The notes under the pieces are model-generated. The model searched no databases and was not told where the DNA came from. It saw only the letters and a list, made by a program, of their open reading frames with translations. Source: an uncultured Actinomycetes bacterium (GTDB taxonomy: Bacteria > Actinomycetota > Thermoleophilia > Solirubrobacterales > Solirubrobacteraceae). Taken from it: DNA of 64,000 nucleotides. The stretch lies in assembly GCA_963812435.1 (NCBI GenBank), contig CAWEUZ010000005.1, positions 67,385-131,384 of the forward strand, in the 5' to 3' direction. Numbering within the stretch: the first letter of the stretch is position 1; each line of letters begins with the position of its first letter. The position numbers were made by a program, and so were the translations under genes. Below, in pieces: positions 60,867 through 64,000 of the stretch.

Positions 60867-60940
60867 GGCGCCGTAGCTCAGTTGGTTAGAGCAGCGGACT
60901 CATAATCCGTTGGTCCTTGGTTCGAGTCCAAGCGGCGCCA
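60867..60940 (+). tRNA. tRNA with CAT anticodon (elongator Met or lysidine-modified Ile2; not initiator)
   Basis: GGCGCCGTAGCTCAGTTGGTTAGAGCAGCGGACTCATAATCCGTTGGTCCTTGGTTCGAGTCCAAGCGGCGCCA has a G1-C72 pair and lacks the GGG/CCC anticodon stem. The variable loop TTGGTC resembles E. coli Ile2. Confidence 0.85.
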
Positions 60941-60959
60941 CTGGGGGCTCCTCGGCGCG

Positions 60960-63900
60960 TCAGCAGCTGTGCAGTCGATCGGCCGAGGAGAACAGGGTCG
61001 TGAAGAAGTCCATGCCGTGGTCGAACATCGACGCCGACGGCTTCCCGGAGAGCGCGTCTTGCGCGAGCTTGCTCCCGGCCTGCCCGGAGGCCATCCCGCC
61101 GTTGATGCCGCTCACGTAGTTGTCGGTCACGCACGCCACGCCGTCGCCTTCGGGACCGAACGCATTCATGTCGACGCTGTTGTACTCCTGGTTCAGGCGC
61201 GTGGCCGGGCCGGTCGCCGGACGGTACATGCCGTCCTGCCGCGCAACGCTGCTGAAGGAATTGGTCGCGCGGTTGGGCGCCGACGACCCCTTCGGCCCCG
61301 TGACGTAGTCGTAGAGCTCCTTCACGCCGGACACGACGTGGACGGCGCTCTTCACGAAGTTGACCGCCTTGACGCCCTTCTTGACGACGTCGAAGGCCCC
61401 GCCGAGGCTGATCTTCCCGCCCGTCGGATCGACCGATCCGGCCGGGTCGTCGGCGACGTAGACGTACAGGCCGTCTTGGCCGCCGACCTCGCGCAGTCCG
61501 GTGGGATCGGGCGTCGTCCAGCGTCCGAGCGCGCCGTCCAGCACGCGCATGCCGAGCCGCGTCGTGCCATCGGGGCCCGCGATCCCGCCAGTGTAGCCCG
61601 GCATGCCGGCTCCCGCCGAGCCCGCGGCGGGTGCGCCCCAGGGCCCGTATGACACTGCCGCCATCGCGCCGCCGGCCGGGATCGCTCCGCGTCCGCTGCC
61701 GAGATGATCGAGCGCGAGCGCCTGCGCGCTCCCGCCTGCCACGATCCCGTACGGACGTGTGCCGAGCAGCGTGCGCACGTTGTCTTGGGCGAGCAGCCCG
61801 CCGCTGAGCGGGTCGACGAGGGACGTGCGTGCGCTCGTGCCGGTCTGCTGCAGCAGCGTGCCGTCGTCGGCGACCGTGAAGCTCCACGCGCCGGCCGGCG
61901 TCGCGATCGCCGTCAGGTGGTTTCCGCCGTCGTACCCGTAGGTGGTCGTGCCGCCCGGGGAGACGACCTTGGTGAGGTTGCCGCGCTTGTCGTAGGCGTA
62001 CGTGCTCGCGCCGGCGCTCGTCAGCTCGTCGGCGTCGTCGAAGGCGTATCTCGTCGTCGTCGCCCCGGCGGTCTGGCTCGTCCGGTTTCCCACGCCGTCG
62101 TACTGCCAGCTCGTGGTGGTGGCACCGGCGTCGTCGGCGACGAGGCGGTCGGCTGCGTCGTAGGCGTAGGCGTGGCTGCCGGTCGGGTCGGCGACGCTCG
62201 TGACGCGCCCGGCGGCGTCATAGCCGATCGCCTCGTCGAACATGACGGCTCCGCCGCGTCTGTACATGAGTCTGGTCAGCCGGTGGGCCTCGTCGCTGTC
62301 GACCGCCAGCGTGACGCCGGCCGGCAGCGTGGCGCCGGTCGGCGTACCCGCCGCGTCGTAGCTCCAGCCGGCGCTCGCGGACGGGTCGGTCGCGGAGGTC
62401 ATGCGTCCGACCGCGTCGTAGCCGAAGCTGGTCGTCACCGGGCCGGGTTGCGTTCGGCTCACGACGCGTCCCGCGGCGTCGTACGCGTAGCTGACGGTTC
62501 GGCCGAGCGCGTCGGTGCTCGCCGTCAGGCGCCCCTCGGCGTCATACGTGCGGGCCAGGCTCCCGGCGGCGTCGACGCGCGAGGTCAGCCCGCCGTCCGC
62601 GTCGTAGCCGTAGGTCGTGGAGGTGCCGTCGGGGTAGGCGGTCGAGGTGCGCCGATCGGCCGCGTCGTACGCGTAGGTCGTGACCTTGCTGCCGGGGTCG
62701 GTCATGCTCGTCAGCCGGTCAGCCGCGTCATACGCCTGTACCGTCATGCGCTGCAGCGGGTCGGTCCCGCCCGTCGGGTTGCCGTTCGCGTCGTAGGTCG
62801 TCGCCCACACATGGCCGTTGGCGTCCGTCAGCCGCGTCACGCGGCCGTCGGCGTCGTATCCGAAGCTCGTCGTGGCGCCGAGCGCGTCGGTCACCGCCGC
62901 GAGGCGACCGGCGTTGTCGTAGGCGCGCGCGACGGTGTGTCCGAGCGGATCGCTCGACGACGTCTGCTGGCCGGCGTCGTCGTACTCGATTGCCGTCGTG
63001 TGCCCGAGCGGGTCGGTGACGCTGGTGCGGCGGTTCGCCGCGTCGTAGCCGAAGCCGGTGATCGCGCCGGTCGGGTCCGTGGTCGCGACGAGGTTGCCGT
63101 TCGCGTCGTATCTGAAGGCGGTCGTCGCGCCGGTCGCGTCCGTGGTGCCGGCGAGCAGTCCGCTCGCCGTGTACGTCCAGCTCGTGGCGTGCCCCAGCGG
63201 GTCGGTCATCGAGGTCCTGCGGCCCGCCGGGTCGTACGTCGTGGCGGTGGTCTTGCCGAGGCGGTCGGTGGTCGCGACGCGGTCGCCGCGCGCGTCGTAG
63301 GCATATCTCGTCGTCTTGCCGAGCGGGTCCGCGATCGAGGTGACGCGCCCGTCGTCGTCGTAGCCGAGCGTCGTGACGTGGTCGAGCGGGTCGGTGACGC
63401 TCGTGCGGTTCCCGTCCCCGTCGTAGCCGTAGGAGGTCGTGTGGCCGAGCGCGTCGGTCGCTGCCGTGCGCAGGCCGCGAGCGTCGACGGCGAACGTCGA
63501 CGTGTGCCCGCGCGGGTCCGTTGTCGACAGGAGGTTGCGGTGGCCGTCGTAGGTCCAGTGGGTCACCGCCCCGGTCGGGTCTCTCTCCTGCGTGACCTGG
63601 TCGGAGGCGTCGAAGACGTCGGTCGTGACCTTGCCGAGGGGATCGGTCGTCGTGAGGCGGTTGCCGCGGGCGTCGTAGGCGAACGTCGTGGCGCGGCCGA
63701 GCGGATCCGTGCTGGCGATGAGGTTGCCGGCCGCGTCGTAGGCGTATCTGGTCGCGTTCCCGAGCTCGTCGACGTCGGCCGTGAGGCGACCCAGCTCGTC
63801 CCACTCGTAGCGGCGCGTTCCACCCGTCGGGTTGCCCTTCGTGGTGACGTGCGCGGCGCCGTCGTAGCCGTACGTCGTGATGTGGCCCTCCGCGTCGGTC

Positions 63901-64000
63901 TGGCTGACGACGCGACCCAGCTGGTCGTACTCGTTGGCGACGACCTGCTCGCCGTTCGCGTCGGTGGCCGTGACGATCCGGTCGTCGGCGTCGTAGCCGT
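60960..64000 (-). CDS. RHS/YD-repeat polymorphic toxin (5' end outside the window)
   Basis: Dozens of YD repeats (..YxYDxxGNRTSxTDPLGxxT..) are present. I translated the frame up to base 64000 and it stays open, so the track start at 63566 is an artefact. The core ends with GMRVLDGALGRWTTPDPTGLREVGGQDGLYVYVADDPAGSVDPTG and is followed by a ~150-aa unrecognised C-terminal domain. Confidence 0.9.
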   Translation of the reverse strand, partial: GYDADDRIVTATDANGEQVVANEYDQLGRVVSQTDAEGHITTYGYDGAAHVTTKGNPTGGTRRYEWDELGRLTADVDELGNATRYAYDAAGNLIASTDPLGRATTFAYDARGNRLTTTDPLGKVTTDVFDASDQVTQERDPTGAVTHWTYDGHRNLLSTTDPRGHTSTFAVDARGLRTAATDALGHTTSYGYDGDGNRTSVTDPLDHVTTLGYDDDGRVTSIADPLGKTTRYAYDARGDRVATTDRLGKTTATTYDPAGRRTSMTDPLGHATSWTYTASGLLAGTTDATGATTAFRYDANGNLVATTDPTGAITGFGYDAANRRTSVTDPLGHTTAIEYDDAGQQTSSSDPLGHTVARAYDNAGRLAAVTDALGATTSFGYDADGRVTRLTDANGHVWATTYDANGNPTGGTDPLQRMTVQAYDAADRLTSMTDPGSKVTTYAYDAADRRTSTAYPDGTSTTYGYDADGGLTSRVDAAGSLARTYDAEGRLTASTDALGRTVSYAYDAAGRVVSRTQPGPVTTSFGYDAVGRMTSATDPSASAGWSYDAAGTPTGATLPAGVTLAVDSDEAHRLTRLMYRRGGAVMFDEAIGYDAAGRVTSVADPTGSHAYAYDAADRLVADDAGATTTSWQYDGVGNRTSQTAGATTTRYAFDDADELTSAGASTYAYDKRGNLTKVVSPGGTTTYGYDGGNHLTAIATPAGAWSFTVADDGTLLQQTGTSARTSLVDPLSGGLLAQDNVRTLLGTRPYGIVAGGSAQALALDHLGSGRGAIPAGGAMAAVSYGPWGAPAAGSAGAGMPGYTGGIAGPDGTTRLGMRVLDGALGRWTTPDPTGLREVGGQDGLYVYVADDPAGSVDPTGGKISLGGAFDVVKKGVKAVNFVKSAVHVVSGVKELYDYVTGPKGSSAPNRATNSFSSVARQDGMYRPATGPATRLNQEYNSVDMNAFGPEGDGVACVTDNYVSGINGGMASGQAGSKLAQDALSGKPSASMFDHGMDFFTTLFSSADRLHSC

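Follow-up and report, generated by a model that had tools for sequence, protein, structure and literature searches.

A giant stalked RHS protein with an unclassified C-terminal tip and no linked immunity gene at two orthologous loci in the Solirubrobacteraceae

Rearrangement hotspot (RHS) cages serve as generic delivery devices and have been studied mostly through tips that are aimed at kin and paired with an immunity gene. What is to be made of an intact RHS gene that ends with no space for such a partner? This question is raised by a locus in an uncultured bacterium of the Solirubrobacteraceae (source genome G000), at one end of a stretch of 64,000 nucleotides (G000:C5:67385-131384; hereafter the window), where the minus-strand gene of a giant RHS protein runs up to a convergent tRNA-Met gene. 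An initial annotation of the window had described an RHS core followed by a tip of about 150 residues that it could assign to no toxin family, a stop codon so close to the tRNA that no immunity gene could fit, and a 362-residue esterase as the next gene beyond the tRNA. This description was borne out in every material point, and needed correction only in that the tRNA ends at 60941, not 60940, which leaves 18 nucleotides (nt) rather than 19 before the stop. Here the complete gene, the relatives of its tip and the orthologous locus of a congener (G418) were analyzed, and a linked immunity gene was found at neither locus. We tentatively propose, as a quite possible answer, that the tip is an effector unable to harm the cell that makes it, acting either outside the cytoplasm or on a target that the producer lacks.

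Architecture of the giant RHS protein

The window holds the last 1012 codons of the gene. The whole gene (L006:345-10382) reads as one frame, with 3345 codons if counted from the first GTG and 3322 if counted from the called Met, and encodes, in order, a hydrophobic N-terminal helix, a CARDB domain, a Pro/Gly-rich spacer, Big_13 Ig-like domains, six beta-helix modules, DUF6531, about 20 RHS repeats and the Rhs_assc_core domain. The N-terminus, read directly from the sequence, starts with M-K-A-R-H-G and continues into a hydrophobic helix of 19 residues, either a cleaved signal or an anchor, which would supply the N-terminal export or trafficking module expected of RHS polymorphic toxins. The six beta-helix modules form a stalk (L006:4250-7890) of head-to-tail copies of exactly 606 nt (202 residues, right-handed beta-helix) with 76-95% DNA identity to one another. 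The stalk of P0006, a database relative described below, is repeated similarly, and the 606-nt module array is a likely site of length variation.

Both the shell and the core domain were recognized by family profiles. PF05593 (RHS_repeat) matched the open reading frame (ORF) of the window with an E-value of 1e-146 and the full protein with one of 4e-149 in 20 stretches, and a match to TIGR01643 (E 2.5e-129) together with the DUF6531 plug completes the RHS/YD shell. TIGR03696 (Rhs_assc_core) matched residues 3117-3193 (E 6e-8; 33.1 bits against a cut-off of 32.5, and 40.6 bits for the same core in the genome search), and this match ends at the second of two motifs, PDPTG and VDPTG, that stand 26 residues apart. 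In characterized RHS and toxin complex (Tc) proteins, such paired DPxG motifs belong to an aspartyl autoprotease by which the tip is cut loose within the cage, and the DPTG of the giant RHS protein is presumed to be the corresponding site at which its tip is released. The initial annotation had directed attention upstream of the window, to a secretion or trafficking domain and to orphan tips; the export helix and the stalk were found there, the G000 genome contains this single Rhs core, and no orphan tips were found in that genome.

No homologue of Omp85/BamA was found in G000, which is 95% complete, while all seven diderm control genomes were matched, so the organism appears to have no outer membrane and is probably a monoderm. 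The G+C content of G000 is about 72%. Judging from its sequence, the protein combines the repeats, the core domain, the variable tip and the putative export signal of an RHS polymorphic toxin, and the most fitting picture of it is a WapA-like stalk, Sec-exported to the cell surface, that carries an RHS cage at its end.

The C-terminal tip and its relatives

The tip comprises 152 residues after the second DPTG (157 from VDPTG to the stop) and matched no Pfam family at E ≤ 1 and no NCBIfam family at E ≤ 0.1. When all seven members of the tip family defined below were scanned at E ≤ 0.1, no toxin-tip family was matched; the only Pfam matches, none of them seen in more than one member, were to RHS, to the stalk and to one weak non-toxin domain. 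Comparison of the tip with sequence profiles of the PDB gave a best E-value of 0.36 (chance level), two runs against the ESM Atlas gave scores of 0.76-0.82, below the useful level, and Foldseek searches of the PDB with a model of the tip returned generic helical matches only (E > 1). Profile and structure searches of the kind proposed with the initial annotation thus recovered no known domain, either toxic or non-toxic, for the G000 tip.

Relatives of the tip are few. A HMMER pass over 1.84 billion representative proteins yielded five of them, namely one metagenomic fragment with 94% identity, two short fragments, one fragment of 386 residues, and P0006, an RHS protein of 3162 residues with a matching Big_13, beta-helix, DUF6531 and RHS architecture. 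A word-index search with the tip alignment returned only P0004, P0005 and P0007 again, and a search for longer proteins returned nothing. About 1,200 genomes were searched, with the single protein at the level of the order and with a tip profile at the levels of the family and the class; only G000 and G418 were found, plus one marginal match judged to be chance. Scans of genome contigs with the tip and P0006 gave no tip relative, and neither did a scan of a metagenome-contig collection with patterns that fit P0004 and P0005, the contigs of which are absent from it. The family compared here has seven members (G000, the G418 orthologue, P0004, P0005, P0006, P0007 and P0008), and the tip represents a very rare but real and unclassified family.

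The G000 tip is also complete. In all four relatives that include RHS sequence (P0004, P0006, P0008 and the G418 orthologue), the homology lies at the extreme C-terminus; the gene calls of P0005 and P0007 are short and cover the tip alone. Of the seven members, five end with a final Cys, which P0004, P0005, P0006 and P0008 share with G000, and P0007 ends in ...RNY. Because four of the five database relatives end at the same final Cys, the G000 tail is not truncated.

Three parts can be distinguished in the tip (Table 1): a linker, a conserved box and a domain of about 90 residues. The linker is Lys-rich in G000 and is replaced by Gly/Ser/Val-rich segments in the relatives, and the NRAT..RQD box is common to all family members, the divergent G418 tip included. 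The domain of about 90 residues is acidic (isoelectric point, pI, 4.1-5.6) and hydrophilic, with ~50% G/A/S/T/N. Invariant positions of the tip are S59, D67, G75, D88 and C101 (P0003 numbering), and no His is conserved. A second Cys accompanies the invariant one in six of the seven members, the exception being the P0007 fragment with its single Cys. In most cases the C-terminal residue is the partner, whereas in G418 a nearby Cys takes this place, and P0006 has an extra pair. Such a conserved pair fits an exported, oxidized domain. AlphaFold2, run with the seven-sequence alignment, placed the last 75 residues in a helical hairpin with a predicted local distance difference test (pLDDT) of 57-64, so that a hairpin is weakly predicted for this domain, and a helix at residues 10-45 was of low confidence in both the single-sequence and the seven-sequence model.

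Between G000 and P0006, identity is 46% in the RHS region and 41% in the tip. Even at this long distance, conservation of the tip thus comes close to that of the shell, and the tip is under constraint. At shorter distance, the congener G418 carries an orthologous giant RHS gene at the same tRNA (66% identity over 3270 residues). Windowed identity between the two orthologues runs at 0.6-0.8 along the protein and drops exactly at the DPTG boundary, to 0.33-0.40 beyond residue 3200 (overall, about 66% before the boundary and about 32% after it), and a sharply variable C-terminal tip of this kind is a trait of RHS polymorphic toxins. What the G418 tip still shares is the NRxT..RQD box and the central Cys; elsewhere it is remote, and the G000 tip is closer to that of P0006 (41%) than to that of its own congener (about 30%). 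This discordance between core and tip trees is the pattern expected of exchangeable or conflict-driven tips. The G+C content at third codon positions (GC3) of the tip is 0.92-0.94, equal to that of the remaining gene, so the tip is not a recent import that lost its partner.

The question of a linked immunity gene

At neither orthologous locus does a co-directional gene follow the tip. In G000, the spacer of 18 nt before the convergent tRNA contains no ORF, no terminator-like site and no promoter-like site, and the tRNA-Met itself is a core gene adjoining the esterase across the genus, the two being contiguous in at least seven congeners. In G418, the order is the esterase, the tRNA-Met, a pair of small plus-strand ORFs, and then the convergent RHS stop about 9 nt away. 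The giant RHS gene lacks the coupled immunity gene that RHS polymorphic toxins normally have.

The candidates in the neighborhood were all rejected. The esterase is a core gene that stands beside the tRNA in congeners without the giant RHS gene as well, and P0010, a secreted protein of 362 residues encoded upstream of the G000 RHS gene, occurs in 11/26 congeners that do not have the RHS gene but not in G418, so that it does not co-occur with the latter gene. ORFs that are antisense to the tail or overlap it were dismissed as shadow frames, because their GC3 is low (0.56-0.64, against 0.94 for the reading frame of the tail) or because they are antisense frames that share third positions with the tail and are interrupted by a stop. 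The small-ORF pair of G418 (L034:7121-7835, plus strand) looks vapBC-like because its second ORF encodes a PIN-domain protein (Pfam E 5e-9), and as an immunity locus it was rejected as a standard PIN toxin-antitoxin module on the opposite strand.

An internal control is provided by eight shorter RHS genes of the genus (L047-L054), at which coupled ORFs were judged by inspection only. Six of the eight are accompanied by a co-directional ORF that starts -19 to +1 nt from the stop; several of these stop-coupled ORFs contain three or four hydrophobic segments and follow short Gly/Ala/Cys-rich tips, and two of the loci are in G418 itself. The control shows that the genus conforms to the usual rule, to which the giant RHS gene is a real exception. 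The shorter proteins have the same core, the same DPxG boundary and small Cys-pair tips as the giant one, but their tips are mostly hydrophobic and Gly/Ala-rich or globular, whereas the giant RHS protein has an acidic, hydrophilic tip with no ORF coupled to it.

The shorter RHS proteins of the genus (L047-L054 and L023-L032) have short, Gly/Ala/Cys-rich and often hydrophobic tips of 55-135 residues, one of which has 12 Cys in 55 residues. Most of them are followed by small, multi-pass membrane-like ORFs that overlap the stop, and the arrangement looks like bacteriocin-style peptide cargo with membrane immunity proteins.

Possible roles of the tip

How could such a tip be kept without a partner? 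According to our proposal, a giant Sec-exported RHS protein, probably anchored at its N-terminus, would stand on the cell surface, where a stalk of Ig-like and beta-helix domains would carry the RHS cage. The cage would hold the 152-residue cargo, probably cut free at DPTG, as the motif suggests, and this cargo would consist of an amphipathic linker, the NRAT..RQD box and an acidic, probably helical-hairpin domain of about 90 residues held by a Cys pair. It would act either from outside the cytoplasm or on a target that the producer lacks, for example in bacteria of another cell type, fungi or protists, and no cognate immunity gene would be kept beside the tip because the effector could not injure its producer. 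That the protein is exported, that the Cys pair is conserved, that the tip is hydrophilic and non-enzyme-like, and that an immunity gene is missing at both loci all argue for this reading, which the initial annotation had listed among its suggestions (a tip not aimed at the producer's own cell type) and which the evidence favors short of proof. Zhang et al. (2012, PMC3482391) describe polymorphic toxins that lack an immunity protein as mostly aimed at other organisms and not at conspecifics. The sequences establish the architecture, the completeness, rarity and polymorphism of the tip and the lack of a linked immunity gene at two orthologous loci, whereas we infer autocleavage, a disulfide, toxicity and the kind of target.

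Three known systems resemble the giant RHS protein in part. WapA/WapI of Bacillus subtilis, a monoderm in which WapA is Sec-exported and wall-associated, offers the closest layout: an export signal opens the protein, a long extracellular stalk leads to an RHS shell bounded by Rhs_assc_core, and the C-terminal tip varies even between close relatives. WapA tips are tRNases whose cognate wapI lies directly downstream, whereas the tip of the giant RHS protein is unclassified and uncoupled at both loci, and its stalk consists of Big_13 and six beta-helix modules instead of wall-binding repeats. The TcB/TcC cocoon likewise joins a cage to a DPxG aspartyl-protease boundary, and it has no immunity gene because its cargo is aimed at organisms unlike the producer. 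Unlike the Tc toxins, however, the giant RHS protein is a single Sec-exported polypeptide with its own stalk, and its cargo is not an ADP-ribosyltransferase; no SpvB, TcdB_toxin_midN, beta-propeller TcB or TcA domain was among the Pfam matches of the 3345-residue protein, and no search of the genome was aimed at a TcA gene. Teneurins, which are eukaryotic type II membrane proteins of adhesion and signaling with a Tox-GHH-derived end, resemble the giant RHS protein in that a membrane helix at the N-terminus is combined with a long extracellular region and with a YD/RHS shell near the C-terminus, where a small appendage ends the chain; the match of the latter to TEN_YD-shell is weak (E 1e-11, below the cut-off), and no homology of the tip to teneurins was detected. 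The giant RHS protein is WapA-like in layout and Tc-cocoon-like in its missing immunity, and it is a member of neither system.

A bolder form of the proposal, which we consider doubtful, is that the tip-bearing giant stalked RHS proteins are a distinct surface weapon of monoderms, whose disulfide-stapled helical cargo acts, for example on diderms, fungi or protist grazers, without entering the producer's kind of cell. They would then constitute, Tc toxins aside, the first RHS lineage of bacteria to be systematically immunity-free, and the cargo, as a new effector family, would act by non-enzymatic means. The lineage is tractable for studying both the uses of RHS proteins in soil monoderms beyond sibling rivalry and the action of small, non-enzyme-like cargo, and such work may yield a new effector family and put to the test the rule by which a missing immunity gene is read as the sign of a foreign target.

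Several points weigh against an effector that is harmless to its producer. The locus context was inspected at two loci only (G000 and G418), and the failure of all nearby candidates for an immunity gene was not accompanied by a genome-wide search for an unlinked one. The disulfide that may hold the domain of about 90 residues is suggested solely by the conservation of the Cys pair, and the AlphaFold2 models of the tip are poor (pLDDT 39 with the single sequence and 46 with seven sequences). No fold match or catalytic motif was obtained for the tip, and its activity is putative. In addition, a simple pore-forming mechanism, as for a hydrophobic peptide, is not supported, because the tip is hydrophilic and acidic (grand average of hydropathicity -0.4, pI 5.0).

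A serious though unlikely alternative is an ordinary antibacterial polymorphic toxin, directed against kin and competitors, with protection supplied by an immunity gene unlinked in the chromosome or by an unrelated resident function. The RHS core, the cleavage motif and the sharp polymorphism of the tip are classical traits of such toxins, and the discordance between core and tip (41% identity to P0006 against about 30% to G418) suggests tip exchange as in antibacterial systems. However, a coupled ORF has been retained at other RHS loci of the genus, two independent orthologous loci of the giant gene do without one, P0010 and the esterase fail as candidates, and G000, with its single Rhs core, holds no orphan tip. 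The initial annotation had also considered that the immunity gene lies elsewhere; both neighboring candidates have been lost to that suggestion, and an unlinked gene is the form in which it survives.

We regard it as fairly improbable that the tail is non-toxic, serving as cargo or plug, as a surface ligand or signal in the manner of a teneurin-like C-terminal peptide, or persisting as a decaying remnant that fills the cage. The composition of the tip (~50% small residues), its few invariant residues, the lack of a conserved His and of any enzyme-like motif, the low structure confidence, the missing immunity gene and the constant association with the same giant stalk architecture would all agree with such a role. 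Nevertheless, conservation of the tip at 41% against 46% for the RHS region, together with a fixed box, Cys and C-terminal end, argues against decay, and the abrupt divergence of the G418 tip at DPTG is a signature of conflict-driven tips.

The surroundings of the tRNA lend some plausibility to a third explanation, in which the immunity gene was lost by deletion or truncation at the tRNA edge of an island and the locus is crippled. The interval between the tRNA-Met and a kdpD-like kinase gene differs between congeners, and several congeners carry copies of 45-55 nt of the 3' half of the tRNA-Met, 1.4 to 44 kb downstream (G414, G410, G405, G411, G407 and G417; L038, L039), some of them in two steps. 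Since such copies look like att sites and are typical of integrated elements, the tRNA-Met is a recurrent integration site in the genus, and the giant RHS gene, which is present in 2/27 genomes of the genus, lies in a variable tRNA-adjacent slot. The loss of a partner at this edge, which the initial annotation had raised, is nevertheless very improbable and already largely refuted, because no att repeat is present in G000, the gene is an unbroken frame of 3345 codons with the same kind of end as in its relatives, the codon usage of the tip is native, and G418 has the same tRNA-proximal orientation, again without a co-directional gene.

Table 1. Coordinates of the tip locus and its neighbors, as positions of the window
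Feature	Position	Strand	Basis or remark
Abhydrolase_3 esterase, 362 residues	59713-60801	-	Pfam E 1.9e-53; next co-directional gene beyond the tRNA
tRNA-Met (anticodon CAT)	60867-60941	+	ARAGORN; Rfam RF00005, 75.5 bits
Spacer between tRNA 3' end and RHS stop	60942-60959		18 nt
RHS ORF	60960-63998	-	Open at the window edge
Stop codon of the RHS ORF	60960-60962	-	
C-terminal part of the tip, about 90 residues	60963-61232	-	P0003 residues 68-157; alignments, composition, AlphaFold2
Final Cys157	60963-60965	-	
Cys101	61131-61133	-	Invariant
Conserved box N-R-A-T-x-S-x-S-S-V-x-R-Q-D	61233-61274	-	P0003 residues 54-67; alignments
Linker after the cleavage motif, Lys-rich amphipathic helix	61299-61415	-	P0003 residues 7-45; hydrophobic moment 0.41-0.47
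RHS repeat-associated core with PDPTG and VDPTG	61419-61649	-	TIGR03696
RHS/YD repeat shell	61650-64000, continuing past the window edge to G000:C5:138408	-	

Elsewhere in the window, a protein of 453 residues is encoded at 58342-59703 on the plus strand. It had no Pfam match, resembles the Hvo_1808 surface family (NCBIfam E 1e-34, below the cut-off), and also gave weak matches of the HExxH type.

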